From Planctomycetes bacterium RIFCSPLOWO2_12_FULL_50_35 (GTDB taxonomy: Bacteria > Planctomycetota > Brocadiia > Brocadiales > Bathyanammoxibiaceae): a stretch of 59,733 bases of DNA. The notes below the pieces were generated by a model. It was not told the origin of the DNA. It was given only the letters and a program-made list of their open reading frames with translations, and searched no databases. Shown piece after piece: positions 22,582 to 44,042 of this stretch; position 1 is the first letter of the stretch; each line of letters begins with the position of its first letter. A program made the position numbers and the translations under genes. The DNA is taken from contig MHZB01000026.1 of the NCBI GenBank assembly GCA_001828605.1, forward strand, positions 1 through 59,733, written 5' to 3'.

Positions 22582-22638
22582 TATCCGTTGGAATAACCTA
22601 CACAGCTTTGCTGGATAACATAGAGGAGGGTGGGTGTA

Positions 22639-24436: not shown

Positions 24437-24567
24437 TTTAGTGAGAAAACTGTGCGTATAATCCAGTGGGTCTGGGAGCGCTGGATACTGGTTATTCTGG
24501 GTCACTGCCGATTTTCCAGTACGTTGTAGTACACGCTGGCCTGGGTCAAAAAATCTGGAAAAAATTA

Positions 24568-24595
24568 TTGATTTATTGTGTATTGTGAGTATAAT
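24568..24595 (+). promoter_or_regulatory. strong sigma-70-like promoter ahead of the Cys-rich gene and hzsCBA
   Basis: TTGATT, 16-nt spacer, TATAAT, about 55 nt upstream of GTG 24653. Confidence 0.6.
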
Positions 24596-24652
24596 TGACG
24601 ACCACCTAACCTGAAACTGCCTGGAATAATAAAAAAGGAGGGGGGTGAGAAA

Positions 24653-25174
24653 GTGAAAAAGTTTGGAGTAATAAGCCTAATTGTGCTTCTTGCCTTCTGT
24701 TTTGTTGCTTCACAAGTAGTGCTGGCTGAGGAGAAGCCCTGCCCGAAGGCAAAAATCCTGAAGAAATTCTGGTGTGAACAGTGTAAAGAGGTCAGTGAAT
24801 TTTCGGACTGCTCAAACCAGGAATACATGTGGAACACTGCGGAACACAAAGCAAAAGAAGCGAATCCCCATTCGAATTTACCGCAAACATGGTCTTGTGC
24901 GACCGCAGGTTATTACTGCATAAAGTGTGGTAGGTGCTATCCAAAGCCCGGTATTTGTCTTGACTGCAACGATGATACGGAAAGCAGGAAGAGCTTCTCA
25001 AAGATATTGTTCAAGTGTCCAGACGGGCATGAGCACCACGAAGCGGGCACAGGCTTTAAGTTGAAAGAAGGTGCGTACGAAGAAGAGTTGGTGGACGCCG
25101 GTAATTGTCCAACGTGTGGGAAACATCTGGAGATGATTTGTACAAAGTCCGGAACCTGCCCACACACCACATAG
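24653..25174 (+). CDS. secreted Cys-rich protein (multiple CxxC pairs), hypothetical
   Basis: 173 aa. Signal peptide MKKFGVISLIVLLAFCFVASQVVLA. 16 Cys in the mature part, including CEQCK, CIKCGRC, CLDCN, CPTCG. No CXXCH. Strong SD site aaaggagggggg. Confidence 0.65.
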   Translation: MKKFGVISLIVLLAFCFVASQVVLAEEKPCPKAKILKKFWCEQCKEVSEFSDCSNQEYMWNTAEHKAKEANPHSNLPQTWSCATAGYYCIKCGRCYPKPGICLDCNDDTESRKSFSKILFKCPDGHEHHEAGTGFKLKEGAYEEELVDAGNCPTCGKHLEMICTKSGTCPHTT

Positions 25175-25223
25175 CTCGTAGTGTTTTTAGAGTTCATATT
25201 TAAAAAGGAGGAGGGTTCGCTAG

Positions 25224-26363
25224 ATGAAAAAGAAGTCGTTGTGTAGCGGATTACTAAGTGCCGCGGTGCTCTCCTTGGCGCTTATTTTCATACAGACTGC
25301 TGATGCAGGATATATCCAAGGAACCCGCGTACAATCAGAACACCCCTCGCCATTCAGCATTTCGATCTCGCCTGACGGAAATACCCTTGCAGTTGCAAAC
25401 CAGTCGGGCCATAGTGTTACCTTCATAGACGCTAAGAGTCAGAAGGTGACGGGTGAGGTGGCAGTACATGATCAGCCAGAGTCGTCGGTCTTCTCGCGTG
25501 ACGGCAAGACTCTGTACGTCTGCAACGCAGAATCCGACAGCGTCTCAGTGGTTGATGTTGCTTCTAAGAAAGAGACCAAGGAAATTAAGGTAGGTGACTG
25601 GCCTTGCAATATAAAGCTTAGCAAGGACGGTTCCAAGGCCTATGTGTGTTGCTCTGGGAACATGTGGAACACGGTTGACGTCATTGACACCAGCCGCAAC
25701 GAGAGAGCCAGTGTGATTGAACTACCTGATTATGGTCCTAGGGATATTGCCATATCACCTGATGGTGGCACGGCTGCTTGTATTTGCGATACTGCAGGTT
25801 CCATCAACAGGGCCGTATGCTTTATAGACTTGGCCTCAAATAAGGTCGTAGACAGAAGGCCAATCCGTCACAGCGCCAATCTCAGGAGCGTTGTTTACTC
25901 TCCAGATGGACAGTATGTAGCGGTTACATACATGAAGCCGAAGAACTGGCTGCCTGTCTGCGAGGCCGAGAACGGCGAAGTATTTACGAACAATGTGGCC
26001 GTTATAGAGACAAAGCCCCATGGTAAGCTGGCCCAGCTCCCGTTGGACGAGCTTAACAACTACGATGGGACTCCGTACGGTCTGGCGATCGACCCGCAGG
26101 GAAAGTATCTCTACATTGCCGTACGTGGCATGCACAGGGTTACTATCCTGGACTTCGATAAGATTCGTGACATAATGATCAGCAATACCCAAGAGCAGCT
26201 TGACAGCTACACGGATGACCTGGATTTTGTAAACCACTATCTGGTGCAGAGGGTGCCCGTGGGCCTTGGACCAAGCTGGCTTGCACTTTCCCCAGACGGG
26301 AAGTATTGCTACGTGTGCAATTATTTCTCTAACAACGTGTCGGTTATAAAGACACCGTTATAA
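25224..26363 (+). CDS. hzsC: hydrazine synthase beta subunit (seven-bladed YVTN-type beta-propeller)
   Basis: 379 aa, signal peptide. Repeated D.K..YV.N..S..VSV.D blades (AVANQSGHSVTFID, YVCNAESDSVSVVD, YVCNYFSNNVSVI). Positioned immediately before hzsB-hzsA. Confidence 0.8.
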   Translation: MKKKSLCSGLLSAAVLSLALIFIQTADAGYIQGTRVQSEHPSPFSISISPDGNTLAVANQSGHSVTFIDAKSQKVTGEVAVHDQPESSVFSRDGKTLYVCNAESDSVSVVDVASKKETKEIKVGDWPCNIKLSKDGSKAYVCCSGNMWNTVDVIDTSRNERASVIELPDYGPRDIAISPDGGTAACICDTAGSINRAVCFIDLASNKVVDRRPIRHSANLRSVVYSPDGQYVAVTYMKPKNWLPVCEAENGEVFTNNVAVIETKPHGKLAQLPLDELNNYDGTPYGLAIDPQGKYLYIAVRGMHRVTILDFDKIRDIMISNTQEQLDSYTDDLDFVNHYLVQRVPVGLGPSWLALSPDGKYCYVCNYFSNNVSVIKTPL

Positions 26364-26425
26364 GGACTAAGTTAGTCCCTGAAACTGGATTGTGATAGGT
26401 TTTAGGAAAAGGAGGGGAAGATAGA

Positions 26426-27448
26426 ATGCGTAAGACGATTGTATTTCTTGCGATGGCTGCCCTCATGTTGTTCGGCTTTACGGCCGTTGGTGATGTGACG
26501 GCTGGTGAGGCCAAGGTGGTAGCCACCATACAGACTGGACCGGAGTGGACTCCTCCGGAGAGGGGTGAGCCTCTGACCATTCCTGAGGTTCATTACAGGG
26601 TAAAGCACTCTCCGTACAGGAGTGAGCTTGTGCGTTCAGGACAGTTTTTGTTTAACGATGCCAGCTGGGGTCTTCAGGGCGAGTATTCGTGCGCTGCCTG
26701 CCATTACGAGAGGGGACAGTCCACGGGGCTTATATGGGACCTTGGTGACGAGGGCTGGGGCTCCTGGAAGAACGTGAAGTACATCCGGGGGGGCCGTTAT
26801 CTGCCGCCCTTCAGGCACGAGGGTTTCACCGGTCATCCGGACGAGATAGTCGGTGCAACCAGTTCGATTGACAGGGTATGCGGTCGTGACCCTGGTTTTG
26901 TGTTCAGGAGCGAGAACTGGTCAGCAGACAGGCTTGAGGCGCTTATTGCCTACATAAGGAGCCTTGAGTATACCGGAAGTCCTTTCAGGAATGCCGACGG
27001 TTCGCTGACGGAGGTGCAGAAGAGGGGCATGAAGACGTTCTATGACCCCAAGGTAGGATGCGCCAACTGTCATCCTGGCGATCCGATGGACAAGAGAGGC
27101 ATGTTTGGAGACGGGCAGACCCATGATGTGGGGACTGGCCGTGTGGGGAAGTACGGGTTCAGGTCTACGCCTGGCGCCGTGTTTAACACGAAGGCGCTGG
27201 ATGCCGGAGTAGACCCGTATGGTGAGGAATATGACGTGCCGATTATCGGTCTTGATCTGGTGAAGGAGTTTGACACGCCGACGTTGAGGGACAGCTATGC
27301 ATCAGCGCCCTATTTCCACGACGGCAGTGCGCAGTCCTTGATACAGACCATAGACAACTCCGCTACGGAGAAGGACAAGCACGGAGTTACTTCTCATCTG
27401 ACAGAACAGGAACTCCAAGACGTGGTGGAGTTCATGAAGGCGCTATAA
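26426..27448 (+). CDS. hzsB: hydrazine synthase gamma subunit (di-haem, cytochrome c peroxidase/MauG-like)
   Basis: 340 aa, signal peptide. Two CXXCH (CAACH, CANCH). Contains the peptides GWGSWK and QTHDVGT, which I recall as conserved hzsB primer targets. Confidence 0.85.
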   Translation: MRKTIVFLAMAALMLFGFTAVGDVTAGEAKVVATIQTGPEWTPPERGEPLTIPEVHYRVKHSPYRSELVRSGQFLFNDASWGLQGEYSCAACHYERGQSTGLIWDLGDEGWGSWKNVKYIRGGRYLPPFRHEGFTGHPDEIVGATSSIDRVCGRDPGFVFRSENWSADRLEALIAYIRSLEYTGSPFRNADGSLTEVQKRGMKTFYDPKVGCANCHPGDPMDKRGMFGDGQTHDVGTGRVGKYGFRSTPGAVFNTKALDAGVDPYGEEYDVPIIGLDLVKEFDTPTLRDSYASAPYFHDGSAQSLIQTIDNSATEKDKHGVTSHLTEQELQDVVEFMKAL

Positions 27449-27723
27449 AGAGGAGCTAATGTGAAAAGAGAAGACGGTTGGTTACTACTCCTGGACCAGC
27501 CTGACCTCTCTCCTCTCTGAGGTTGCATGCGTAAAAAGGAGGGTTATCGCTTAGACGTTTTTGAGTACAGAGATTGACCTGGGTCGTTAGCTGACCGAAG
27601 ATTCGTTCGTCTAGTGCCTGCCTTTTAAGCTAATGACGGGTAGGGGTCTAAGACGAGAGGGGAAAAGGTAGTCTCTGGTATTATTATGAGTCGGAGCGGA
27701 CTGAAAGGAGGATGTAGCCAACC

Positions 27724-30171
27724 ATGAAGCAATGGTTATTAAGAACCACTGCCATCCTGTCGGTTGGGCTGTTGGTTGCCGCTGGCCATTACGGCAGTGC
27801 ATCGGCCGCCAACGTGAATATAGGTGGCCTAAAACCCGGGACGGCATACTATACCGATTATTGGGGAATCTCCAAAGAGTGGCAGGGTGACGTAAACACC
27901 ATCTTGTTTACACAGTCGCCCAAAACGGCTGCTGGTGACCCGTATCATCAGTATCCCAATTATATCCCCGTGGGTAGCCGTATAACATCAATGAGCCTCG
28001 GCAACAAGCAGGTAAAAGTGCTGACGGCCGATTTCTCAACTGCTTTTGACCCTTGTACGGATTGGGATGGCAAGAGGTTTGCGTTTGCCGCTATCAAGGG
28101 AAGTGGTAGCCCACAGATATGGGAAATGGGCATTGACGGCTCTAATCCCCGTCAGTTGACCGACCTTCCTGGAAGTTGCAGAAGCCCTGTCTATTATCCA
28201 GCCGGTGCGATAGAACCTGGCGAAGGAAACATAGTATGGCGTGATAGGTATTTCGAGGGTGACTGGAAGATCCGCGGAAAGGTCGAAAAGACAGGATTTA
28301 TCCTCTTTGCCTATGCTCCAGATGGCGTAAGGGATGAGTATTACAACCCATTCAGCTACCAGCTTTGGAGGATCGACCCCATTGGTGGAAAGATGCTGGA
28401 GCGTATCACCGGGGCAAAGATGAGCGGTATTGACTCCCCGAAGCTGAATACTGTAGTGGATAAGATAACCTACAACATGAGTTCCGACTTTGACCCCTGG
28501 CTGACCAGGGATGGAAGGGTCGGTTTCTCAAGTACACAGGCTTTGGGCAGCAGGATGTATGGTCATGGCAGGATTGCTATCTTTACCGATAACTGGGATG
28601 GTTCCTATCCTCAGCCGTTCTATGGTAACTGCGAGGGTGAGGGTGAGATAAACCACTCCAGGGTGCAGGCAAAGGAGCATCCTGATAATATGTTGATCTT
28701 CACGGAAGGCCCTTACCAGAATTATGGTGTTGGGCAGTTGTCGGCCGTAAAGTACTCAGCCCCGTTCCAGAGCAGCTACAGGCAAATCTCTGACGGAAAA
28801 GGCTGGTACAGGGATCCGTCCCCGCTTCCAGACGGCAGAATGGCTGTCTCTTATGCGGAGAGGGCGGACTACGGTATCTATTGGTTTGATTTCAATAAGG
28901 GAACCGCTGGTGAGCTGATTAACGACGACCCGAACTGGAACGACCACCAGCCAACGCCTGTTTACAGGAAGTACAAACCTCGTTGGATTAATACGTTTAC
29001 AGCTGGTAAGAACTTCGGCGTTACCGTTGTGACCTACCAGCCTTTCGACCAGGTAAAGATTGAAGGTTACCCGTCCTCTTGGGGAACAGCTTGCTGCTTT
29101 GACACCACCTATACACCTCCTCCAGGAAGTACCACCATCGGAGGTATTACGGTTGGTCCTTATCCATGGCAGTTGGCGAAGGCCCTGAAGCAGGGTGACG
29201 TGAAGGCCGTAAGGACCATGGGTGGCTATCAGTGCAAAGAGCCAGACCCGAAGAGGTTCGCCGTCGGTGCAGGAAAGCACCTGTTGGGCGGAAACCGTAC
29301 AAGCAGCAACTCGGGTACTTCATTTGCCCAGGTCTCAATATGGGGCTATCAGAACGTGTTTGACGACGGCTCTGTAGTAACATCGTGCCCGGCTGATTCA
29401 CCTGCGTTCGTGCAGACCCTGGACGAGAGAGGCATGGCCCTCTGCTCAGAGATGTGGTGGGGTTACCTTAGACCGTACGGTGGTAGAATATGCAGTGGCT
29501 GCCACGACGGTTCTTACAGGGGAAGGGCTTTCAAGAATGAGCATTTTAAGGCCCTTTACAACTGGTGGTATGATGACAGAAGCCACTATGACTCACCGTT
29601 CTTGTTTTCCAACGTGAGGATTGACAAGGATGGCTTATACAAGGGAGTAAAGCACGGTGACGACGTAGTGGTGCCTGCTGACGTGTATTACGGCGGTCCT
29701 TCTGGTACAACTTCTCAGCCGGTAGAAGGTCTTACCAGGGAGAAGTGGAGAACGGTTGACTTCAGAAGAGACATTCAGCCGATTATAGATTCAAAGTGTG
29801 CCAGCTGCCACAACGGGACAATCTCACTCGATTTGAGTGGTGGTGCAAACCCGGTGGATGTCGAGGGCGTCGCTGCTTTCAGCAATGCGTATAACAACTT
29901 GCTCGCAAGGCAGCCCGGCAAAGACCCGTCACTAGGTGGAAAGTACGTACATCCGGCTAGCGCCAGGAACAGCCTGCTCATCTGGAGGCTTTACGAAGAG
30001 ACGCTTAGTGATTTCGTACCAAGGCCTAATCCCTTCCCAGCCGAAGGTAGGCTGTTGCACAATAAGTTCCTCACCTCCGACGAGAGATATCTCTTTGTGG
30101 AGTGGGCGGACATTGGCGCACAGTGGGATAACATCCCAGGTCCTGACTTCTACCCGGGATACCGTGGTTAG
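27724..30171 (+). CDS. hzsA: hydrazine synthase alpha subunit
   Basis: 815 aa, signal peptide. CSGCHDGSY (Tyr at His+4) and CASCH. Blocks ILFTQSPKTAAGDPY, RDRYFEGDW, WINTFTAGKNFGVTVVTYQPFDQVK and SHYDSPF match my memory of anammox HzsA. Confidence 0.92.
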   Translation: MKQWLLRTTAILSVGLLVAAGHYGSASAANVNIGGLKPGTAYYTDYWGISKEWQGDVNTILFTQSPKTAAGDPYHQYPNYIPVGSRITSMSLGNKQVKVLTADFSTAFDPCTDWDGKRFAFAAIKGSGSPQIWEMGIDGSNPRQLTDLPGSCRSPVYYPAGAIEPGEGNIVWRDRYFEGDWKIRGKVEKTGFILFAYAPDGVRDEYYNPFSYQLWRIDPIGGKMLERITGAKMSGIDSPKLNTVVDKITYNMSSDFDPWLTRDGRVGFSSTQALGSRMYGHGRIAIFTDNWDGSYPQPFYGNCEGEGEINHSRVQAKEHPDNMLIFTEGPYQNYGVGQLSAVKYSAPFQSSYRQISDGKGWYRDPSPLPDGRMAVSYAERADYGIYWFDFNKGTAGELINDDPNWNDHQPTPVYRKYKPRWINTFTAGKNFGVTVVTYQPFDQVKIEGYPSSWGTACCFDTTYTPPPGSTTIGGITVGPYPWQLAKALKQGDVKAVRTMGGYQCKEPDPKRFAVGAGKHLLGGNRTSSNSGTSFAQVSIWGYQNVFDDGSVVTSCPADSPAFVQTLDERGMALCSEMWWGYLRPYGGRICSGCHDGSYRGRAFKNEHFKALYNWWYDDRSHYDSPFLFSNVRIDKDGLYKGVKHGDDVVVPADVYYGGPSGTTSQPVEGLTREKWRTVDFRRDIQPIIDSKCASCHNGTISLDLSGGANPVDVEGVAAFSNAYNNLLARQPGKDPSLGGKYVHPASARNSLLIWRLYEETLSDFVPRPNPFPAEGRLLHNKFLTSDERYLFVEWADIGAQWDNIPGPDFYPGYRG

Positions 30172-30972: not shown

Positions 30973-31099
30973 ACCTTTCCCGCAAGGAGTCGGATTAGAT
31001 ATACTCAAGGGTCGTGTGATTATGGCCTGAAGGACAGGGATAAGTTCGTGCGTTTTTTCATCATATCTGCATACTCCACCGATGGTTCTCAAAAATATC

Positions 31100-31127
31100 T
31101 TGACAGCAAATGGTTTCTTAGTATAAT
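31100..31127 (+). promoter_or_regulatory. consensus sigma-70 promoter of the HAO-like gene
   Basis: TTGACA, 16-nt spacer, TATAAT (both hexamers perfect). About 160 nt upstream of ATG 31294. Confidence 0.65.
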
Positions 31128-31293
31128 TCAGCGATATTTCGTGTTGAGGTCAAGTGGAGGGAACTTGAGAGGAGGGGTTTGTACGGTTTCTAAACTCTTG
31201 CCACAGAAGTCCTTGCTAGCCCCAAAAGACATCTTAGATAACCTTCACTTAGAATTACTAAAGAAGAGCATAGAGAAAGGAGACAAGCCGGGT

Positions 31294-32973
31294 ATGAAAA
31301 TTCTTAGGGGACCTTTAGCATACTGCACCATTCTGGCGATGGTGGGGCTTCTCCTGTTAGGTAGTCAGGGTGTGTCTTTGGGCAACCCGGATCCTACGTT
31401 TCAGGAGGTAGCGTCATCGATTTATGGCCAGCCTGTGGGCAAGGGTGATAGTGGTGACCTATATGTGTTTGGTCTCACCTCGGAGTATGTCCAGCCGGAG
31501 TACGTAGACGGTGTAGGACCGTACAAGTCATTTACAAAATTCTTACCTGTAGTGCGTTGGTACAGACCGCAGGAGTACTGGGTTAACAAGAACAGTGTGG
31601 AAGGTGTGTTTAAGACGGAGGAGTGTGTGCTCTGTCACTCCGTGCAGACGCCGACCATTGTGAACGACTGGAGAGCCAGCGGTCACGCCAACCCGAGACC
31701 GGACGCCGAGGCCGCTAAAAAGTATTATCTAGGCGACCCGGCCGCGATGGCCCAGAAGGCAGATGCTATAGCAAAGAAAATCGGTGAAGATATAACGGTA
31801 GTTGGATGTGACAAGTGTCACGGAAACGACCACCAGAAGCTTCAGATGCCTACCTGGCAGACATGCCAGAAGTGCCATCCCGAGCAGACGGCCGGGCATC
31901 GTTCCGGCGGACTTGGCTCGCACACCCATGCATGGACGGTGAACGTGTTGGAGTTCTCCTGGCAGCTTGGGAAACCACCGGAGGAAGTCAACGGATGTCA
32001 GGCATGTCACGCCATAATAGAGAACAGGTGCGACGGCTGTCACACCAGACACAAGTTTAACGCTGCTGAGTCCAGACAGGCCCACGCATGTAGGTACTGC
32101 CACCTGGGTGTAGACCACAGGGAGTGGGAGATGTACAGCACCTCCATGCACGGCATACTTCATGACGAGGAGCAGTCTATACAGGACTGGACAAAGCCTC
32201 TGAAGAAGGGTAATCACAGGGTACCTGGCTGTGCGTACTGCCACATGCAGGAGGGCGACCACAACGTACAGAGGTTTGGTACAATCTATAGTGACATGGG
32301 TATGTTTGAGGTAGACCGTGGCGCGCCGAAATGGGCGGCAAAGAGGGAGGCATGGATAAAGAAGTGTATGGATTGCCATTCTCCCAACTTTGCAAGGGAT
32401 CAGTTGAGGTCGATGGACTATGGTGTAAGGTTGAGCTTTACCAAGTGGCGTGAGGCCGCTAACGTTATCGTGGGTTGTTTCCTCGGAGGCGAGCTGGACC
32501 CCATGCCGACGGACCTTGCTCCGGACTGGTACGGTCACTATACCTTCAGTCTGTTGCCAACCGGAGACCCCAGGTTTTATAACGTTTCCGACCTAGAGAG
32601 GATGGGGCTTGAGATGATTTGTTATCTCACGGATAACGTGTACAAGGCCCTCGCCCACATGGCTATTTACAACGCCACTTACGGGACGGGCGGTGCCTTT
32701 GAGCAGGACCGTATGCTGATTCAGATTAAGGCTGAGGCCAGCCGTCTGAAGAGGTTTAAGGCCCTTGAGCAAAAGGTCGGAATTGAGTACAAGGCTCAGC
32801 CGTATTGGAAGCATGGCGAGTACTTGGACCTTCTGACCGGTTGGAAGAGGAAGGAAGGCGACGTGGACCTTGCCTGGTTCCAGAGGAACGATATCCCGCA
32901 TCGTCATAACGCCGATTCGGGTCTGGAGGCCCATGTTCCAGAGGTGCACGGAAGTCCTGTTCACGGTCAGTAG
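31294..32973 (+). CDS. octahaem hydroxylamine-oxidoreductase-like protein (HAO/HOX family, all eight sites canonical)
   Basis: 559 aa from ATG 31294 (SD site agaaaggag), signal peptide. Eight CXXCH with HAO spacing, including CDKCHGNDH, CDGCHTRHKF, CRYCHLGVDHREW, CAYCHMQEGDH. Candidate cross-link Tyr in NATYGTG. Confidence 0.85.
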   Translation: MKILRGPLAYCTILAMVGLLLLGSQGVSLGNPDPTFQEVASSIYGQPVGKGDSGDLYVFGLTSEYVQPEYVDGVGPYKSFTKFLPVVRWYRPQEYWVNKNSVEGVFKTEECVLCHSVQTPTIVNDWRASGHANPRPDAEAAKKYYLGDPAAMAQKADAIAKKIGEDITVVGCDKCHGNDHQKLQMPTWQTCQKCHPEQTAGHRSGGLGSHTHAWTVNVLEFSWQLGKPPEEVNGCQACHAIIENRCDGCHTRHKFNAAESRQAHACRYCHLGVDHREWEMYSTSMHGILHDEEQSIQDWTKPLKKGNHRVPGCAYCHMQEGDHNVQRFGTIYSDMGMFEVDRGAPKWAAKREAWIKKCMDCHSPNFARDQLRSMDYGVRLSFTKWREAANVIVGCFLGGELDPMPTDLAPDWYGHYTFSLLPTGDPRFYNVSDLERMGLEMICYLTDNVYKALAHMAIYNATYGTGGAFEQDRMLIQIKAEASRLKRFKALEQKVGIEYKAQPYWKHGEYLDLLTGWKRKEGDVDLAWFQRNDIPHRHNADSGLEAHVPEVHGSPVHGQ

Positions 32974-35125: not shown

Positions 35126-35185
35126 ACGTAATTTTGGCATTCTGTAAGGTATTTGGTGCCGCAAGGTAATGGGTTGGAAATTCTG

Positions 35186-36400
35186 ATGGGCAAAGCGGAC
35201 ATTTCGTCAAGATCGATAGAGATAGCCCCTGGTGTATTTTGGGTCGGTGTACTGGACCGCAACCGCACTATCTTCGACAGTTTTATGAGCCTTCCTTACG
35301 GGACCACGTACAACGCCTACCTGGTTGTCGGCAGAGACAAAATAGCGCTGATTGACACGGTCAGTTCTGAGTTCGGCGACGTCCTTATAAAGAAGATAAG
35401 CGACGTGGTGAGACCGGAAGATATAGATTACTTGGTGATGAACCATGCTGAACCGGACCACGGTGGGTCAATACCGAAGGTGTTATCTATTGCCAAAGAG
35501 GCCAGGCTGGTTGCCTCAAATAAGGGGGTGGGCGTAGCAAAACTATTCTACGACGTCCAGGAAGAAAGGGTCACAGCCGTGGGAGACGGGGCGCATATTG
35601 ACCTTGGCGGCAAGACACTGAGATTTATAGACGCACCTTGGCTTCATTGGCCGGAGACAATGTTTACCTACTGCGAAGAGGACAAGGTCCTTTTCAGTTG
35701 TGATTTCCTCGGCGCCCACGTGGCGGCAGATAAGATATACGAAGACGAAGTTGGCGACATAGTGCTTGCCGAGGCCAAGAGATACTATGCCGAGATTATG
35801 ATGATATTTATAAACCCTCTCAGAAAGGCGCTCGATAAGTTGGATGGGTTAGACATTAAGATAATAGGTCCAAGTCATGGGCCTGTGTACCGGAACCCAC
35901 GGCGCATACTGGATGCCTATAACAAGTGGGCAAAGGGCCCTTTGGAAAAGAAGGCGGTAGTTATTTATGTGTCCATGTATGGCAGTACCGCTGCACTGGA
36001 GAAGACGGTGGTTAAGGCCATGGAAGAAGAGGGGATTGATGTGGTAGCTTACAACATGGTAAGGTCAGATGTCTCCCACATAGTTACGGACCTTGTGGAT
36101 TCCAGTGCCATAGTCTTCGGCTCACCGTCCTTTTACGGAGGTATGCATCCCAGGCTTGCCTCCTCGGTGGAGCTAATTAGGAGTATCAAGCCTCGGGGTA
36201 AGGTAGTGGCAGTGTTCGGTTCTTATGGTTGGGGAGGTGGAGCCGCTAAAGAAATAAAGGCCAGGCTGGCGCCGGCCGGCTTCGATGTGATAGAGACATT
36301 GGAAATAAAGGGCCCTCCCAGGGAAGAAGCTCTGGATAAGGCCCGTGCCCTTGGCAAATTGGTCGCAGATAAGGTGAAGGAAATCTTGGCGAAGAATTAG
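35186..36400 (+). CDS. flavodiiron protein (metallo-beta-lactamase plus flavodoxin; O2/NO reductase type)
   Basis: About 404 aa. Di-iron motif NHAEPDHGG, C-terminal flavodoxin-like domain (VVIYVSMYGSTA...). Confidence 0.88.
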   Translation: MGKADISSRSIEIAPGVFWVGVLDRNRTIFDSFMSLPYGTTYNAYLVVGRDKIALIDTVSSEFGDVLIKKISDVVRPEDIDYLVMNHAEPDHGGSIPKVLSIAKEARLVASNKGVGVAKLFYDVQEERVTAVGDGAHIDLGGKTLRFIDAPWLHWPETMFTYCEEDKVLFSCDFLGAHVAADKIYEDEVGDIVLAEAKRYYAEIMMIFINPLRKALDKLDGLDIKIIGPSHGPVYRNPRRILDAYNKWAKGPLEKKAVVIYVSMYGSTAALEKTVVKAMEEEGIDVVAYNMVRSDVSHIVTDLVDSSAIVFGSPSFYGGMHPRLASSVELIRSIKPRGKVVAVFGSYGWGGGAAKEIKARLAPAGFDVIETLEIKGPPREEALDKARALGKLVADKVKEILAKN

Positions 36401-36788: not shown

Positions 36789-36928
36789 GTGTCTTTCTTA
36801 GCCACAGATACCAATCTATACATATAAAGTATAGTAGTATTTGGAAAGGAGGTGTAAGGTAATTGGGGAAAGGAGGAGGAGTTACAAGGTCTATGAATAG
36901 ATCTAGGAAAGGAGGAGGACGTTTTAAC

Positions 36929-38701
36929 ATGCCTAAAACGTTGAAGGTACTGCTAATCTTAGGTTTTGTTGCAGGCCTGTGTTTCATAAGCTCCTTCAAC
37001 GGTGGGTTTGATAATGATGTGTATGCAGTAGAAATCATTACCCACTGGGTGCCTCACGAAGTATATGGTATGCCAGGCGAGCCAGATAATAATGGAAAGG
37101 TTTACTTCTCTGGTCTTGGCGCCAAGTACATGGGTGCACCGAAGGGAGGACCGCCCTGGCCTGGTAAGTACAGTAGGTTTTTTAGGACATTACCTGCCTA
37201 TCGCTATTACATTCCTGACGGTATGTATAATAGAGAGGACCTCCGTCCACCGAACCCGATAAAGGGTGTCTTCCGCAATGAGCAGTGCGTGGGGTGTCAT
37301 GAGGTTTTGACTCCCGGAATTGCAAGAGACTGGAAGATGAGCAGGCATGCTTCAGTTGAGCCCGCTCCGGTAGGTTGTCCGACCTGTCATAACTCTGACC
37401 ACCAGAAGCTGCATATGCCCAGCTCAAAGACCTGTGGTACAGAGGATTGTCACAGCACGCAGTACACACAGCAGATGGAAGGTGGAATTGGTTCTCACGG
37501 ATCCTGCGCCAGCTTTGCTCAGGTAGAGTGCGCATGGTCCATCGAGAGACCACCAGGAGATACTGCCGGTTGTGTGCTTTGTCACACCAGTGCTGAGGAG
37601 AGATGTTCGACTTGTCACGCAAGGCACCGTTTCGATCCCAGGACAGCCAGGAAGTCTGAGCAGTGCAAGACCTGCCACTGGGGTAAAGATCACCGTGACT
37701 GGGAGGCCTATGACATATCCATTCACGGCGTAGTGTATCAGACCGGCAAGTGGGACCCGAAGCTGTTTGACTGGGAACAAAAGTTGTCTGAGGCAACTTA
37801 CACCGGTCCGACATGCGCATATTGCCACATGCGTGGTGGTCATCACAACGTGCAGAAGCTGTCCACGGTCTACACAAGTATGGGTATGTCCATGTGCGAC
37901 CGCGGCGCTCCTCTCTGGCAGGAAAAGAGAGATACATGGGCATCAGTTTGTGACGATTGTCACTCACCCAGATTCGGCAAAGAAATCCTTCAGTGTATGG
38001 ACGAGGCAGTTAAGGATGCCGCCCTTAAGTATCGTGAGACCTTCAAGGTTGCAGAAGATCTCTACAGGGACGGTGTACTAGACCCCATGCCTAAGGACTT
38101 GGCGCCAGACTGGTCTGGTCAGCACATCTGGAGTCTTAAGATCGGCGCTTATCACGGCAACGAGTTTGGTGGAAAGACAGGCGAGTCCGGTGAGTTCAGG
38201 ATGTCCAACTGTACCAACGTAGAGCGTCTGTGCTTCGAGAGCGTTGGTTACTGGCAGACCTATATATTCAAGGGTATGGCTCACGGCAGCTGGAACGACG
38301 CCACATACTGCGATGGCTCCTTTGGTATGGACCGTTGGCTGGTGGACGTCAAGACGCAGGCTTCCAGGGCCAGAAGGCTTGCAGCCCTTGAGAAGAAGGT
38401 CGGAATCACCTGGGTCCCAGAAGACTTCTGGAGACACGGTGAGTGGCTTGACCAGCTTAGTGGTTGGAAGATTGTCAGGGAGTATCCTGGCAAGACCATG
38501 TTTGACCTCTGCCCAGAGCCGGGTTGGCTTGATACACATCATGCACCAGCCGCTGAGGTGGAGTATATCGAGAGAATGATTAAGCAGCTCGGTATGAAGG
38601 CTGGTAGGCATTCTGTTCACGGCCACGGTCATGAGGAGCATGGCACTCAAGGTCCTGAGACGCATGAACACGAATCGCCTGAACATACTCACGCCAGATA
38701 G
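36929..38701 (+). CDS. hdh: hydrazine dehydrogenase (octahaem HAO-like, hzo cluster-1 type)
   Basis: Seven CXXCH plus a CX4CH third site (CGTEDCH). CKTCHW and GQHIWS peptides (recalled hzo primer targets). Signal peptide MPKTLKVLLILGFVAGLCF. In-frame alternative starts at 36863 and 36893. Confidence 0.88.
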   Translation: MPKTLKVLLILGFVAGLCFISSFNGGFDNDVYAVEIITHWVPHEVYGMPGEPDNNGKVYFSGLGAKYMGAPKGGPPWPGKYSRFFRTLPAYRYYIPDGMYNREDLRPPNPIKGVFRNEQCVGCHEVLTPGIARDWKMSRHASVEPAPVGCPTCHNSDHQKLHMPSSKTCGTEDCHSTQYTQQMEGGIGSHGSCASFAQVECAWSIERPPGDTAGCVLCHTSAEERCSTCHARHRFDPRTARKSEQCKTCHWGKDHRDWEAYDISIHGVVYQTGKWDPKLFDWEQKLSEATYTGPTCAYCHMRGGHHNVQKLSTVYTSMGMSMCDRGAPLWQEKRDTWASVCDDCHSPRFGKEILQCMDEAVKDAALKYRETFKVAEDLYRDGVLDPMPKDLAPDWSGQHIWSLKIGAYHGNEFGGKTGESGEFRMSNCTNVERLCFESVGYWQTYIFKGMAHGSWNDATYCDGSFGMDRWLVDVKTQASRARRLAALEKKVGITWVPEDFWRHGEWLDQLSGWKIVREYPGKTMFDLCPEPGWLDTHHAPAAEVEYIERMIKQLGMKAGRHSVHGHGHEEHGTQGPETHEHESPEHTHAR

Positions 38702-38736: not shown

Positions 38737-38781
38737 AAGAGCTGCACAGATGGGTAGTTGCCTCTGTGCAGCTCTTTTTTT
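38737..38781 (+). terminator. rho-independent terminator of hdh
   Basis: 14-bp perfect stem aagagctgcacaga / tctgtgcagctctt, 12-nt loop, 7-T run. Confidence 0.85.
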
Positions 38782-38802
38782 ATAGAATGGAGTTTTGCTG
38801 AG

Positions 38803-40953
38803 ATGAGAATGGTACTTTCAATAGCGCTAAGCTTGTTCCTTGTAGGCCAAATATTTGCGGGTACCGGTGTTGCCGGAGAGGGCTCCGTACTCCACAAAGA
38901 CGTTGCGCAAGATTATTACAAAAAAGGTCAGTATGACGATGCCGTAAATGAATATAAACAGTGGCTCAAGAAGAATCCGTTTGACCCGGAGGCCTTTTTG
39001 GAACTGGGTCAAAGCTACGTGGCTAAGGGGTTGTACAAAGAGGCCGTCGAAGAGTATAAGCAGGCGCTGAAATTCTATCCGGACTATCCCGAGGCACATC
39101 TCAAGTGTGCAGATGCGTATTTTGCGCTTAATGATATGGAGAAGGCCGAATATGAATACCATCAGGCAATCAGGACGAACCCAACCATGGTTGAGGCCTA
39201 CTACAAGCTGGCAGTAATACTTAATATGACGGGAAGATACGATCAGGCCATAGCGCAGTGCAAGAGGGCCATTAACAAGGACCCCCAGTATGCGCAGGCG
39301 TATGTTGCAATGGGTCTTGCTCATTACAAAAATGGCAATTTGGACGAGGCGGTAAATAACTGCAAAAAATCGTTGGAATTAAAGCCGGAACTGATAGAGC
39401 CTCACAGGACACTGGGTCTTGCGTATGCCGGAAGCGGTATGGTTGATGAAAGCATAAGGGAGCTTAGGGTAGTGCTCAATGCGGTCACTGAGGATACGGA
39501 GGCGCGTCTCTGGCTTGGGAAATCACTGGCAAAGAAGGGCCAAAAAGACGAGGCCGTGGAGGAGTACAGGAAGATTCTTTCAGTAAAACCGCAGTATGCA
39601 GATGCCCATTATTATCTTGGTCTCATCTACTATGACAAAGGCCTTGTTGACGAGGCAATAGTGGAATACAAGAGCACGATAGATACCAACCCCAAACACC
39701 CGGAGGTACACACTGGACTGGGGATGGCATATAGTCAGAAAAGGGCATTTGAGGGGGTTATATCTGAGTTTGGGAAGGCGGTTGAGATAAAATCCTCACA
39801 ACCGGACGAGTTTATAGCGGCCATGAGAGAGGCCATAAATTCCGACCCGAACAATGTGGAGGCAAAGGTCTATCTTGGGATTGCGCTGGCGGATAAAGGG
39901 AGATTGGATGAGGCGATAGAACTTTATCAAAATGCCATTTCCCTGAGCCGTTATTACGTTGATGCCCATTACCGTCTCGGTCTGGCATATGCAGAAAAGG
40001 GTCTTTTGGAGGAAGCTGCCGCAGAATTCAAGCAAGTTATAGAGATAAACCCAAAATATGCGGATGCCCATAAAGAATTGGCCGATACATTCAATAGGAT
40101 TGGTGCACCTAAGGATGAGTACACGATATGGTCCAACGCAGTGGAACGCGACCCCGACGACACCAAGGCCCATCTGGGGCTCGGTATGTATTTCCACCGC
40201 ATGAATAATATTGACGACGCCAAGGCAGAGTATGACAAGGTACTGGAGCTGGACCCTTATAATGCCAGCGCATGCTATAACCTGGGTGTACTGTACCAGG
40301 ATTTGCACCTTTCCGAACGGGCGATACCTTACTATCAAAGGTGCATAGAGCTTAAGCCGCAGTACGACAAGGCTTATTTCAATCTGGCACTTGCATATCA
40401 GGATCAGGAGAGGTACGAAGAGGCGATAGGAATATACGAGAAGGCACTTAATATCAATCCTGACTATGCTCAGGGTCGAGTTAATCTGGGCCTCCTCTAC
40501 TATGCGCAGGATATGTTTGATGAGGCCCAGCTGCAGTTTAATAAGGCCCTGGAGGCTGACCCGGACCTTGCAGAGGCCTACTACCTTATCGGCGTGATAG
40601 AGGGGAAGAAGGGGAATGTTGACGTTGCGCTCGAGAAGACGCGAAAGGCCCTTGAACATGACCCGGATCATGTCCATGCCCATTTCAATCTGGCTACCAT
40701 CCTCTACATGAAGGGTAACCTGGAGGAAGCACTAAAGGAGTATCAGAAGACGATACAGATGAATAGAACCTATGCCGACGCCTACTATAACGTCGCCAAG
40801 ATATATGAGGAGTGGGGCATGAGAGCCGAGGCGGAGAGCTATTTTGTGCAGTATGAAAAGGCTAAGGCAACACAGCAGGATGCCACAGGAGTTGCGCGTA
40901 AGGTCGTTGAAGAACAGGAGTTGATGCCGGATCCAAGCACATACGTTAGGTAA
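38803..40953 (+). CDS. secreted TPR-repeat protein (about 20 TPR units)
   Basis: Signal peptide MRMVLSIALSLFLVGQIFA, then continuous 34-aa repeats (A..Y..AL...P....A...LG..Y). The track ORF start at 38758 lies inside the hdh terminator. Confidence 0.85.
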   Translation: MRMVLSIALSLFLVGQIFAGTGVAGEGSVLHKDVAQDYYKKGQYDDAVNEYKQWLKKNPFDPEAFLELGQSYVAKGLYKEAVEEYKQALKFYPDYPEAHLKCADAYFALNDMEKAEYEYHQAIRTNPTMVEAYYKLAVILNMTGRYDQAIAQCKRAINKDPQYAQAYVAMGLAHYKNGNLDEAVNNCKKSLELKPELIEPHRTLGLAYAGSGMVDESIRELRVVLNAVTEDTEARLWLGKSLAKKGQKDEAVEEYRKILSVKPQYADAHYYLGLIYYDKGLVDEAIVEYKSTIDTNPKHPEVHTGLGMAYSQKRAFEGVISEFGKAVEIKSSQPDEFIAAMREAINSDPNNVEAKVYLGIALADKGRLDEAIELYQNAISLSRYYVDAHYRLGLAYAEKGLLEEAAAEFKQVIEINPKYADAHKELADTFNRIGAPKDEYTIWSNAVERDPDDTKAHLGLGMYFHRMNNIDDAKAEYDKVLELDPYNASACYNLGVLYQDLHLSERAIPYYQRCIELKPQYDKAYFNLALAYQDQERYEEAIGIYEKALNINPDYAQGRVNLGLLYYAQDMFDEAQLQFNKALEADPDLAEAYYLIGVIEGKKGNVDVALEKTRKALEHDPDHVHAHFNLATILYMKGNLEEALKEYQKTIQMNRTYADAYYNVAKIYEEWGMRAEAESYFVQYEKAKATQQDATGVARKVVEEQELMPDPSTYVR

Positions 40954-41230: not shown

Positions 41231-42652
41231 TTACCTGGTGTCTGCGACGCAGCGAAAACCGATTGCCCTGTTTCTTTCATCCGGCCTGGCAAAGGATCTC
41301 TTTGTGCATCTGAGCAGATACGCGGAGTTGGCAAAGAGTGATCCCCCCCGCATAGACCTGACCCCGGTAGATTTTTCCGGTCCTTTTGGGTTAGATGTCG
41401 GACCTCTTTTGTAGTAGTAGCGGTCAAACCAGTCGCTGCACCATTCCATCACACTACCCGCCATATCGTGGCATCCAAAAACACTCTTGCCGTCCTCATA
41501 ACTGCCGACTGTAAGAGGTCCGGTTGCTCCCCAGTTTACCCTTGAGGCGCTGAAGACGTCACCCCAGGGAAACCGTCTGCCATCGGTGCCCCTTGCCGCC
41601 TTTTCCCATTCTGCCTCTGCTGGAAGGCGCTTTCCCGCCCATGCGGCATAGGCATAGGCGTCGTACCAGTCTATTCTTATTACTGGAAAATCAGGATGGT
41701 CGAAGTATCTGTCTTCATACCACTTATCGGGTGTGTGGTCTTTGTCTTTGGGTTCGCCTGGGTAGCATTTGCTGTGGTCGCCGGTCTCACGAACGTGCTT
41801 TAAAAACGCCCAGTATTGGGCATTTGTAACTTCATATTTGTCTATGTAAAAGGCGTCCAAATATACTTCCCTTTGCGGCGTTTCCTCCAGCCTTGCATTC
41901 TCGCTCATTTCATCCCTGAAATTGCTTCCCATTACAAAGATACCTGCGGGCACGACGACCATCTCTTCCCATTTGCTCCGGTTCTCCTCCAGGGCCTTCT
42001 TCATTATCTCACTTTTCCGCTCTTCCTTATCCTGGAGCCTTTTCTCTTTCTCCCGCGGCTTTAGGCTGGTCTCCGCCTCTTCCAGTTTCGCCACATAACC
42101 CTCGATTTGCTGCCTTGCCTCGGTATTCTCATAGGGTATCAACTTTAAACATTCGTCCAGGTGTTTCAAGGCCGACTTTTTGTCACCCAACTGCCAGTAA
42201 ACACCCCCAAGCTTGTAGTGCACAGATGGGTCTGAAGGGTCTAGTTCCAACACACGTAAGAGTTCGTTCAATGCATCCTCAAAGTATGCCTCTTCTATCA
42301 GTTGGTCCGCCTTTTCTGTGCGCTTCTTGGCCATTTCCTTGAGCTGTTCCTTGGTAAGTTCTTCCGGGGCGGCCCCTGGTTTTTCGGCCGGTGCAGGTTC
42401 CAGTTCAGCTCCGTCGTTGCGGCAGAAGGTCTCTCCGAGTTCACCCCTTTGCCCGCATTTTGGACAGATGAGTTCCGCCTCCACTGCGAGTAGTTCCGTA
42501 CCGTCTTTTCCGCAGAATTTTATATCTTCCGTATACATCTGGCCGCAGTCCGGACACCTCTTTGTTTCCGGCGTTTCGGGCTCGGACCATGTTACAGACG
42601 TTGATATGCAGATGGTAACGACAAACAGTAGGTGCAAAAATAACCTAATCAT
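41231..42652 (-). CDS. secreted/anchored protein: double zinc ribbon, TPR, and formylglycine-generating-enzyme (SUMF1/FGE) domain
   Basis: ATG 42652 with a GGAGG SD site. Hydrophobic N-terminus, CPDCG..FCGKDG and CPKCG..FCRNDG ribbons, TPR segment. C-terminal FGE-type domain (YDAYAYAAWAGKRLPAEAEWEKAARG, RGGS, GFRCV). Confidence 0.8.
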   Translation of the reverse strand: MIRLFLHLLFVVTICISTSVTWSEPETPETKRCPDCGQMYTEDIKFCGKDGTELLAVEAELICPKCGQRGELGETFCRNDGAELEPAPAEKPGAAPEELTKEQLKEMAKKRTEKADQLIEEAYFEDALNELLRVLELDPSDPSVHYKLGGVYWQLGDKKSALKHLDECLKLIPYENTEARQQIEGYVAKLEEAETSLKPREKEKRLQDKEERKSEIMKKALEENRSKWEEMVVVPAGIFVMGSNFRDEMSENARLEETPQREVYLDAFYIDKYEVTNAQYWAFLKHVRETGDHSKCYPGEPKDKDHTPDKWYEDRYFDHPDFPVIRIDWYDAYAYAAWAGKRLPAEAEWEKAARGTDGRRFPWGDVFSASRVNWGATGPLTVGSYEDGKSVFGCHDMAGSVMEWCSDWFDRYYYKRGPTSNPKGPEKSTGVRSMRGGSLFANSAYLLRCTKRSFARPDERNRAIGFRCVADTR

Positions 42653-42753
42653 CTTTACCTCCAACAACTTACACAAATGCGTGTACCCAGTAATATGTGG
42701 CGTAAAAATAAATGTTACCATATAGACACCAAAAATCAACACGCTAAAAACAC

Positions 42754-42783
42754 TTGAAACGGCCGGTATCATTGTGGTAAAAT
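42754..42783 (+). promoter_or_regulatory. possible promoter of the 11-haem gene
   Basis: TTGAAA, 18-nt spacer, TAAAAT, about 55 nt upstream of ATG 42837. Confidence 0.35.
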
Positions 42784-42836
42784 TCCTATCTCTCAAACCT
42801 TATCCTAGATAGAGTCCAACAAAGAGGAGGGGCCTC

Positions 42837-44042
42837 ATGGCAGAAGGTGAGAAGTGTGAATGCTGGTCAACCAAGACCATAGACTGGGTAAAGCAGAATA
42901 AAAGGACAGTAAGGATTGGTCTTGTCGTTTTCCTGCTGGTATTCGGCTTTGCCAACCTGCAGATGTACCACTACTCAGAGACCTGCGAGTTTTGCGGCTT
43001 GCTCTGCCATGAGATGAATGTGCATTATTCCTCCTTCATGGAGTCAAAGCACCACAACGAACACGTTCACAACTGTCACGAGTGTCATGTGGGAGCAGGC
43101 ATGAAGGGTTTTCTCCATGCGAAACTCAGCGACGGTACGCACGACACATTTGAGCATCTTAAGGGTACTTTTGCCGACGGCAGGATTATAGAGGTTGCAG
43201 AAGATAGCGTACCCACGGTAAACAGCAATTGCATTAGGTGTCATTCAGAGGGGTACACAAAAGACCAGACGCATCTGCCTGCGGTTGCCGTAAGTACGCG
43301 CAAAATAAGCGAAGGTGTCTTTAAGAATCTTATGTGCACCGATTGTCATGCCGGCCTGGTACACCCGCATATGCCTGGGGACCTCTTCAAGGCATATACA
43401 GAAATGAAAAAGTCTCATCCGGATGCCAAGATAGAACCGATAGGTACGTATAAGGATGTAGAGTGTCTCGGCTGCCACAAGAACACTACCCCTGAGGTCG
43501 TAAAGGAATGGACCAACAGCGGACACGCAAAGAAAGGCGTGACCTGCGATGGGTGCCATGGTAACGACCACAGCGTAATTAAAGAAAGGTCCGGGCACGT
43601 TACAGCGGCCAGTTGCGCCCAGTGCCATGAGAAGGCCTACAATGAGTTTAAGGAGACCAAACATATACAAGGCCGGGTTGTAGCCACTGTCGCTGGACAA
43701 GATGTCATGACGAAGCAGCTGAGTATGTATCTCTGCAAGGACTGCCACCGCTTTGGAATGATACGCCCATGGGACGAAACCGGCGAGGACTGCGGCTCGT
43801 GTCACCTGGGGCACGTATTTTCCAAACAAGAGGCATCGAAGTCCACCGCATGTGAGAAGTGTCATACGGGTGGGGCATTCCCCGACCATTCGCAGCTTGA
43901 CGTATCCGAGAACTCACCGCATGGTAAGATGTATGCCAAGTGGAGTGAAAGGATGGGGCGCACACCTGCCTGTCAGGAGTGTCACGGTCCTGAACACAGC
44001 CACAATTTTGAAAAATTCAGTGTTGTACACGAATCACTTTGA
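42837..44042 (+). CDS. membrane-anchored 11-haem cytochrome c: NapC/NirT/NrfH-like N-terminus fused to a truncated HAO-like haem core
   Basis: TM helix, CX3CH-EM (CGLLCHEM), then CHECH, CIRCH, CTDCH. HAO-like spacing follows: CLGCH..W..SGHA..CDGCHGNDH, CAQCH, CKDCH, CGSCHLGHVF, CEKCHTGG..DH, CQECHGPEH. Confidence 0.8.
   Translation: MAEGEKCECWSTKTIDWVKQNKRTVRIGLVVFLLVFGFANLQMYHYSETCEFCGLLCHEMNVHYSSFMESKHHNEHVHNCHECHVGAGMKGFLHAKLSDGTHDTFEHLKGTFADGRIIEVAEDSVPTVNSNCIRCHSEGYTKDQTHLPAVAVSTRKISEGVFKNLMCTDCHAGLVHPHMPGDLFKAYTEMKKSHPDAKIEPIGTYKDVECLGCHKNTTPEVVKEWTNSGHAKKGVTCDGCHGNDHSVIKERSGHVTAASCAQCHEKAYNEFKETKHIQGRVVATVAGQDVMTKQLSMYLCKDCHRFGMIRPWDETGEDCGSCHLGHVFSKQEASKSTACEKCHTGGAFPDHSQLDVSENSPHGKMYAKWSERMGRTPACQECHGPEHSHNFEKFSVVHESL

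Follow-up and report, generated by a model that had tools for sequence, protein, structure and literature searches.

An anchored eleven-haem fusion of NrfH-type and HAO-like modules as a candidate membrane acceptor of hydrazine electrons in anammox bacteria

Introduction

Much of the nitrogen lost worldwide is lost through anaerobic ammonium oxidation (anammox). How the four low-potential electrons that hydrazine dehydrogenase (HDH) withdraws from hydrazine reach quinone has been described as unknown (PMC6469936, PMC8388095, PMC3701875), and the anammox version of the hydroxylamine:ubiquinone redox module (HURM), which in nitrifiers consists of HAO, c554 and cM552, has been said to use an 'as yet unidentified cytochrome c' (PMC3701875). 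The locus described here raises the question whether a single membrane protein may take this place. It lies in a stretch of 59,733 nucleotides from Planctomycetes bacterium RIFCSPLOWO2_12_FULL_50_35 (contig MHZB01000026.1, positions 1 to 59,733), which was analysed whole and is referred to as the window, and its coding sequence at positions 42837..44042 of the plus strand specifies a 401-amino-acid (aa) membrane cytochrome with 11 haem sites (ten CXXCH and one CX3CH by motif count).

A first-pass annotation, made from the sequence, had described this open reading frame as a quinol dehydrogenase fused to a truncated HAO-like core and had called the route from HDH to quinone unresolved; the frame is a real gene as described, and the searchable literature cited above says the same of the route. 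Our comparative analysis of sequences and structure models confirmed the predicted product as an anchored 11-haem fusion composed of a transmembrane (TM) helix, an NrfH-type tetrahaem module and HAO-like haems 1-7. On the basis of synteny, a conserved quinone site and elimination, we tentatively favour the reading that this cytochrome reduces quinone with hydrazine-derived electrons; a quinol-oxidising role is nearly as likely.

Architecture of the eleven-haem cytochrome

The N-terminal part of the protein is of the NrfH type. Residues 44-178 (42966..43370, plus strand) were assigned to an NrfH-type tetrahaem module by the NCBIfam model TIGR03153 and, in both sequence and fold, by the Desulfovibrio vulgaris NrfH structure 2j7a. 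The four haem sites of this module (C53/C57-H58, C80-H84, C132-H136 and C167-H171) all lie before residue 172 and the NrfH model is matched over its full length, which bears out the earlier description of four N-terminal sites in NapC/NirT/NrfH style. The match to TIGR03153 joined residues 27-176 to profile positions 4-138 of 138 (E = 2e-18) with a score of 66.8 bits, below the equivalog cut-off of 134.2, and the NapC model NF007906 was far weaker (17.1 bits against a cut-off of 349). PF03264, which is on record for most orthologues, was not reported for the window protein in the domain scan. The N-terminal module matched D. vulgaris NrfH (2j7a) in a phmmer search of the PDB, and Foldseek with the full-length AlphaFold2 model (pLDDT 73) returned NrfH alone (2j7a and 2vr0; probability 1.00, target-normalised TM-score 0.52-0.53). 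NrfH is hence both the best sequence match and the only fold match for residues 27-179, and it shares with the window protein one N-terminal TM helix and four c-haems.

The residues expected of a quinone site are conserved as well. Met60, in the first haem site CGLLCHEM (CX3CH-E-M; 42993..43016, plus strand), aligned to NrfH Met49, and K96 and D103 (K96 to D103 at 43122..43145, plus strand) aligned to NrfH Lys82 and Asp89 in the phmmer alignment to 2j7a; we take Lys82 to be a quinol-site residue. C53, C57, H58, M60, K96 and D103 are each invariant in all 62 orthologues. Because M60, D103 and K96 align with these NrfH residues and are all invariant, they are predicted, by alignment, to form an NrfH-type menaquinol site. 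The menaquinol-interacting haem of NrfH is five-coordinate, with the Met of CXXCHXM replacing His as ligand and an Asp at the distal position (PMC8840924), so that the role of distal ligand first given to the Met in our protein had to be dropped. The expanded site with its Met, also pointed out in the first-pass annotation, is present in the window, but its spacing is peculiar to one clade: the CX3CH form is a one-residue insertion found in seven of the 62 sequences, all of the window's clade, and the orthologues of Brocadiaceae and Scalinduaceae carry CXXCHEM.

The module is anchored by the single TM helix that had been proposed (residues ~24-43, 42906..42965, plus strand), as indicated by a hydropathy of 1.91 over the hydrophobic segment of residues 25-43 and by one AlphaFold2 helix at residues 22-47. 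Since a basic stretch, KQNKRTVR, precedes this helix, the N-terminus is predicted to be inside and the haem domains outside. The cytochrome is accordingly predicted from its sequence to be type-II-anchored, with a cytoplasmic N-terminus and all haems on the outer side (anammoxosome or periplasm). The cytoplasmic tail (residues 1-23, 42905 being the last base from 42837) carries a conserved CxC motif, EKCECW, in the window's clade, and the Bathyanammoxibius orthologue P0003 has a His-rich insertion there in addition, HHHGHSHHHGHDHDDDE. Brocadiaceae and Scalinduaceae have neither; the tail may bind metal.

A linker of low model confidence (residues 179-200, 43371..43436, plus strand; pLDDT 53-65), which carries a clade-specific insertion, leads to the C-terminal module. 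Residues 201-391 (43437..44009, plus strand) were identified as an HAO-like heptahaem module by profile, phmmer, fold and family alignment, and the motifs at C210, C237, C260, C300, C319, C339 and C379 correspond to HAO haems 1-7. The hydrazine_HDH model matched residues 202-401 with profile positions 110-317 of 564 (E = 3e-15; 55.6 bits against a curated cut-off of 900). A phmmer search of the PDB recovered Brocadia HAO, Kuenenia HDH and HOX at E = 2e-12 to 2e-9, in alignments that place all seven haem motifs in register and lack haem 8, and octahaem HAO-like proteins were matched by profile search at up to E = 1e-37. Scores of this size far exceed those that CXXCH motifs in common would yield by themselves. 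In the fold search the HAO-like part emerged only after separate modelling of the C-terminal domain (pLDDT 74), which retrieved HAO-family structures only, at query-normalised TM-scores of 0.40-0.46. The proposed comparison of this part with HAO-type profiles and structures thus came out in favour of kinship.

The module is a pruned one. The chain ends only 18 residues beyond the His of the haem 7 motif, and haem 8, the C-terminal helical domain and the 'AYH' histidine are absent from the 11-haem family throughout the family-wide alignment, as had been foreseen for a core that covers haems 1-7 and stops short of haem 8 and the helices. The domain scan likewise found no Hao_C domain in the window cytochrome, while detecting one in the product of the window's separate HAO-like gene. 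In the HAO family the helical domain forms the trimer interface and, in the oxidising enzymes, provides the Tyr cross-linked to haem 4. Octahaem proteins in the same alignment have seven non-motif His and a catalytic Asp-His pair in common; in the 11-haem family, H230, H245, H276, H326, H351 and H389 are each retained by 61 or all 62 of the sequences. The seven motifs and six non-motif His are thereby collinear with the octahaem HAO family (N. europaea HAO, 4n4j, 6hif, 6t5e), and the His of the catalytic pair is kept; unlike that family, the window protein is membrane-anchored.

Distribution and conservation

The distribution was drawn from a pattern scan with one genome per species. It recovered 78 loci, nearly all in genomes or metagenome-assembled genomes (MAGs) labelled anammox or Planctomycetota, which cover all anammox genera recovered: Brocadia, Kuenenia, Jettenia, Scalindua, Loosdrechtia, Wunengus, Subterrananammoxibius and Bathyanammoxibius. 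The 11-haem form is confined to Brocadiales and present in every anammox genus recovered, and all recovered anammox lineages have it as a core gene in single copy. The survey suggested at the outset therefore found eleven-haem orthologues in anammox bacteria only and no wide occurrence in other bacteria. Intact orthologues of ~400 aa occur in ~75 assemblies at 45-82% identity; all 22 haem-binding Cys and ten of the eleven motif His are invariant, the eleventh being present in at least 90% of sequences.

The 401-aa product has the same sequence as OHB96251.1 (100% identity; Planctomycetes bacterium RIFCSPLOWO2_02_FULL_50_16), and the same 90% cluster includes one partial member labelled Candidatus Avalokitesvara rifleensis. 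One locus (L061), although labelled 'uncultured Thermodesulfobacteriota' in its record, agrees with Scalindua loci in gene order and level of identity, and it is probably mis-binned given these Scalindua-type neighbours. A 38%-identity 'paralogue' in the Brocadiaceae MAG STL-AMX1 (L077, 3206-4432) was rejected as a second family, being a copy split by frameshifts into two reading frames in the same context of FGE gene, cytochrome gene and aconitase gene; judged by its sequence, it would be a pseudogene or else reflect an error of assembly.

The Kuenenia orthologue is annotated as 'putative undeca heme containing cytochrome c protein' and, standing next to an aconitase gene, is probably kuste2877. 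Literature text for kuste287x and KSMBR1_271x/272x yielded its neighbours only (the HPP-family kuste2872, kuste2875 and kuste2876) and nothing on the orthologue itself. Two published proteins were considered and set aside: the undeca-haem EX330_00380 of Shaw et al., whose neighbours (an aminotransferase and a U32 peptidase) differ, and the 'multidomain HAO-like protein' of a 2026 preprint, which is a multicopper-oxidase-HAO fusion of 840 aa.

Relatives and origin of the fusion

A search of 1.84 billion representative proteins with a hidden Markov model (HMM) returned one full-length 11-haem cluster together with short fragments. The next-best matches were three clusters of 12-haem proteins with a TM helix, a NapC/NrfH-like tetrahaem part and a complete octahaem HAO-like part, followed by hundreds of unfused octahaem HAO-like proteins whose labelled sources include Desulfobacterota, Nitrospirae, Bacillota, Acidobacteriota and Thermoleophilia. 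When an HMM built from the C-terminal module was searched locally, the 12-haem fusions scored 112-176 bits (three of four at 152-176) and unfused octahaem proteins 111-149 bits (six of seven at 134-149), compared with 70 bits for the window's own HAO-like protein and 61 bits for its own HDH. Since relatives from outside anammox score so much higher, the C-terminal module is no recent copy of HDH or HOX. The N-terminal module, too, scored best against the 12-haem fusions (96-118 bits). As these fusions are the best relatives of both modules, we conclude that the modules were joined before haem 8 and the helical domain were lost.

The 12-haem fusions (P0308, P0315, P0309 and P0173) have the TM helix, tetrahaem and HAO-like modules in the same order as the window protein and carry a complete octahaem HAO with the PDH motif. 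They differ in keeping haem 8 and the helical domain of ~170 aa, with 12 haem sites in all, and in a first site without Met (CHEL, CHEI or CHNT). They are rare, metagenomic and uncharacterised; one cluster stems from MAGs labelled Planctomycetota, and one of the genes adjoins hydrogenase-like and rubrerythrin genes in a MAG. An Armatimonadota MAG (L081, 8636-10789) encodes a 717-aa protein with the NrfH-like start CKTCHEMDVHY followed by a long, non-HAO-like array of CxxCH repeats, by its sequence apparently another way of extending an NrfH module into a wire.

Catalytic haem or wire

Whether the HAO-like module is an enzyme or a conductor depends on a few positions. The motif CKDCH (C300-H304; 43734..43748, plus strand) aligned with the catalytic haem 4 of HAO and HDH in alignments to 6hif, 4n4j and 6t5e, and D350-H351 (43884..43889, plus strand) with the catalytic pair Asp255/His256 of KsHDH (PMC6469936). 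His351 is invariant in all 62 orthologues. Position 350 is occupied by Asp in 20, by Glu in 25 and by Pro, Val, Ser, Thr, Ala or Lys in 17, and the 17 sequences without an acidic residue all belong to the Scalinduaceae-type group.

Residue H362 (43920..43922, plus strand), a probable distal haem ligand, divides the family evenly. All 31 sequences with Phe at this position (Brocadiaceae, e.g., P0009, P0026 and P0127) have a C-terminal tail of 20-odd residues (26-29), which in 29 of them is complete and ends in a conserved His (LLFGG...P..H), the other two being incomplete; the 31 sequences with His362 all have a short tail without a conserved His. This exchange of H362 for the tail His is probably a swap of haem ligands, and it suggests selection for six-coordinate wire haems, although the swap happened only once on the tree and so has suggestive, not statistical, weight.

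Given the variable Asp, the missing haem 8 and helical domain, and the ligand swap, the HAO-like module is probably non-catalytic, and the former catalytic His351 would act as a structural residue or a sixth ligand. Kuenenia membranes carry <2% of the NO-forming nitrite reductase activity (PMC12485887), which makes catalysis by this part less likely still. Both the loss of the Asp in Scalinduaceae and this low membrane activity weaken the alternative of a membrane-bound N-oxide reductase entertained in the first-pass annotation, while the invariant His351 would allow for an open catalytic haem.

The same conservation bears on the idea that the protein is what is left of a 12-haem enzyme in decay and no longer has a function. 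It is shorter than its nearest relatives and one copy (that in STL-AMX1) is broken by frameshifts; against this, some 75 assemblies hold intact orthologues, their haem Cys, motif His and six non-motif His are preserved, and a lost ligand was apparently compensated by another within the family. We regard a functionless remnant as extremely improbable, as it is effectively refuted by conservation.

Linkage to hydrazine metabolism

The gene for HDH (hdh; 36863..38701, plus strand; NF052343, 1180 bits against a cut-off of 900) lies 4.1 kb upstream of the cytochrome gene in the window. Among the 26 loci with at least 7.5 kb of flank, hdh was found 4.1-7.8 kb upstream in 19, and a gene with an FGE-sulfatase domain precedes the cytochrome gene on the minus strand in 56 of the 62 loci with enough flank. 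The block of hdh, one or more TPR genes, the FGE/TPR gene on the minus strand and the cytochrome gene is conserved in Scalinduaceae, Brocadiaceae and the window's clade, with differing outer flanks. The window as a whole reads HZS electron-transfer module, hzsBCA, HAO-like gene, trpBA, flavodiiron gene, hdh, TPR gene, FGE gene and cytochrome gene, of which the HZS (hydrazine synthase) electron-transfer module, hzsBCA, the HAO-like gene, hdh and the cytochrome gene fall within 22 kb. The closeness to hdh stressed in the first-pass annotation is real, but the distance given, three genes, was off: two genes intervene, one of them on the opposite strand, and for this reason hdh and the cytochrome gene are not one operon.

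In Kuenenia stuttgartiensis ~8 kb separate the cytochrome gene from hzsA upstream of it, with transposase and group II intron genes in between, so that the survey of synteny links the orthologues to hdh or, in Kuenenia, to hzs. At that locus (L082, CP049055.1, 1127132-1148346) the hao-trpBA-hdh-TPR-FGE segment is missing, and transposase fragments, a group II intron reverse transcriptase and the HPP-family kuste2872 stand between hzsA and the cytochrome gene. The replacement of the segment by mobile-element genes points to a rearrangement in Kuenenia.

This linkage also bears on a more general function. The cytochrome might be a CymA-like hub for reversible electron exchange between menaquinone and various cytochromes of the periplasm or lumen, as in iron, manganese or electrode respiration or in metabolism driven by formate, with no special tie to hydrazine. 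NapC/NirT fusions to long haem wires do occur in other phyla, the Armatimonadota protein being an example; the genome paper on Scalindua counts NapC/NirT genes among the intermediates that metal respiration may use (PMC3655542), and the model of extracellular electron transfer by Shaw et al. includes tetra- and undeca-haem cytochromes of the membrane (10.1101/855817). The undeca-haem protein of that model, however, is probably another gene, and ours is found once per genome in all recovered anammox lineages and tied to the hzs/hdh block, so that core catabolism fits better than an optional respiration. A hub of this kind appears unlikely.

Direction of electron flow

In the proposed mechanism the eleven haems would make up a single wire that leads from the quinone site into the lumen. 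Electrons from soluble HDH would reach the distal HAO-like end, most likely via a small cytochrome c, pass down the wire and reduce menaquinone at the NrfH-type site. The cytochrome would thereby be the quinone-reducing end of a hydrazine:quinone redox module, an anammox counterpart of nitrifier HAO, c554 and cM552 in a single polypeptide. Quinone reduction is favoured because HZS has a quinol-linked electron-transfer module of its own in the same cluster (PMC12053348), HDH is without a known membrane partner, and the gene block ties the cytochrome to hdh.

Several observations weigh against this reading. HDH has been described as soluble and unattached to the anammoxosome membrane, in a complex proposed to admit small partners only (PMC6469936, PMC8388095), so that a small cytochrome c shuttle would still be needed. 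The cytochrome gene is not co-transcribed with hdh, the FGE gene between them being on the opposite strand; the conserved block also holds trpBA and genes of the TCA cycle, so that the linkage may partly reflect inherited gene order, and it is broken in Kuenenia as far as hdh is concerned. The HAO-like module shows no special kinship with HDH; closest to it are non-anammox HAO-like proteins, among them the 12-haem fusions. NrfH is a quinol oxidase and the nearest relatives most likely pass electrons from quinol to substrate (PMC3701875); as these kin would be, by analogy with epsilon-Hao and reverse HURM, quinol-dependent reductases, the reductive direction is likelier to be ancestral. An acidic residue and His are retained at positions 350/351 in 45 of the 62 sequences. 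Finally, an NrfH-type site on the p-side would conserve none of the energy in hydrazine electrons of such very low potential.

Much of this speaks for a quinol dehydrogenase that works in the direction of NrfH. In that case menaquinol would be oxidised, and the electrons would go to soluble reductases or carriers or to the protein's own C300-H304 haem, reducing nitrite, NO or hydroxylamine there as a one-polypeptide reverse-HURM or HaoCA-type enzyme. An NrfH-type site that combines a Met ligand with Asp and Lys is characteristic of quinol oxidases (PMC8840924). The highest scores of both modules are those with 12-haem fusions that carry a complete octahaem HAO and the PDH motif, and the unfused relatives come from non-anammox anaerobes. 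Epsilon-Hao and reverse HURM pair an HAO with a NapC/NrfH protein for nitrite reduction (PMC3701875; Haase 2017, cited in PMC10949509), and the invariant His351, with its acidic predecessor in most sequences, would suit a catalytic haem. Yet the Asp or Glu is gone from the 17 Scalinduaceae-type sequences, haem 8, the helical domain and the 'AYH' His are missing, and >98% of the NO-forming nitrite reductase activity of Kuenenia is soluble (PMC12485887). Furthermore, a dedicated quinol module already serves HZS, and Rieske/cytochrome b complexes would conserve energy on quinol oxidation, as this route would not. We consider the quinol dehydrogenase a serious contender, if itself a doubtful one.

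To return to quinone reduction, the cytochrome may be the membrane acceptor of hydrazine electrons, one that arose from an ancestral 12-haem quinol-dependent reductase of HAO type, was pruned to a non-catalytic wire and was reversed, a history that we put forward as possible and with some reserve.

Other features of the locus

Expression signals are found close to the gene. A promoter-like site, TTGAAA and TAAAAT with an 18-nt spacer and a TG element (42754..42783, plus strand; 10/12 consensus matches, a pattern match only), lies ~55 nt upstream of the cytochrome ATG within the divergent intergenic region, and a ribosome-binding site, GAGGAGG (42824..42830, plus strand), was read 6 nt before the ATG.

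Between hdh and the FGE gene, a 731-aa TPR protein is encoded (38758..40953, plus strand; from reading frame and domains). Brocadiaceae and Scalinduaceae have two adjacent ~400-aa genes in its place (L001, 4480-6843; L003, 5201-7759), and by this comparison of reading frames a fusion or a split appears to have occurred. The divergent neighbour with its FGE-sulfatase domain (41231..42796, minus strand; real start probably near 42649) also codes for a TM segment, TPR repeats and a zinc ribbon, with two zinc-ribbon-like CxxC pairs.

In the complete hydrazine synthase cluster upstream (21817-30171), the electron-transfer module (21817-24436) consists of two multihaem cytochromes (3 and 6 CXXCH) and a 4-TM protein. 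Of the HZS subunits encoded there, HZS-alpha has 815 aa, HZS-beta is a beta-propeller and HZS-gamma a dihaem protein; a further gene codes for a small secreted protein. The octahaem HAO-like protein downstream (31048-32973; 641 aa, Hao_C domain) reached 388 bits with the HDH model, well below the cut-off, and is on that account taken for a HOX-type paralogue; compared with HDH it has a ~30-residue insertion between haems 1 and 2 and a longer N-terminal region. A flavodiiron (flavorubredoxin-like) gene lies between trpA and hdh (35153-36400). It stands next to hdh in the window's clade (L007, L012), not in Jettenia or Scalindua loci, and its product may scavenge NO or O2 there.

Relation to known systems and significance

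Each part of the cytochrome has a known counterpart. NrfH serves as membrane quinol dehydrogenase in the nitrite reductase complex NrfHA; the window protein is without an nrfA partner, and its electron-transfer partner is fused to it instead. Its tetrahaem module also has many more conserved His than NrfH, besides the CX3CH first site of the window's clade. In HURM an HAO-family protein is connected to quinone via a tetrahaem cytochrome of the NapC/NrfH/cM552 family, likewise in the window protein; both component families are present in this polypeptide and physically coupled. The HURM parts are separate proteins with a complete catalytic octahaem HAO, whereas here they form one chain with seven HAO haems, and the hydrazine oxidiser HDH is a soluble complex apart, encoded by a gene separate from that of the HAO-like cytochrome. 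The reverse HURM of Nautilia and Campylobacter joins epsilon-Hao with a NapC/NrfH-type cytochrome. The HZS electron-transfer module of the window, of the kuste2854-2856 type, is also a quinone-linked multihaem module in the catabolic cluster, and this type has been assigned to the electron supply of HZS (PMC12053348); its architecture is unrelated, with a 4-TM protein (haem b-containing in Kuenenia, PMC12053348) and separate c-type cytochromes.

The kind of coupling, HAO family with NapC/NrfH/cM552 family, is therefore known; what is new is the single polypeptide with an HAO part pruned to seven haems. The searchable literature holds no functional description of an 11-haem fusion, and an earlier mention in anammox reviews is possible.

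Even if the link to hydrazine should prove wrong, the protein documents an evolutionary series from separate HAO and NapC/NrfH proteins through a 12-haem fusion to the pruned 11-haem form, and within the 11-haem family a clear case of haem-ligand replacement. For the open question of how HDH is connected to the membrane, it offers a concrete protein, an anammox-specific cytochrome that bears a predicted quinone site and is linked to hdh and hzs. If the proposed role is true, the last unassigned step of the anammox respiratory chain would be closed.

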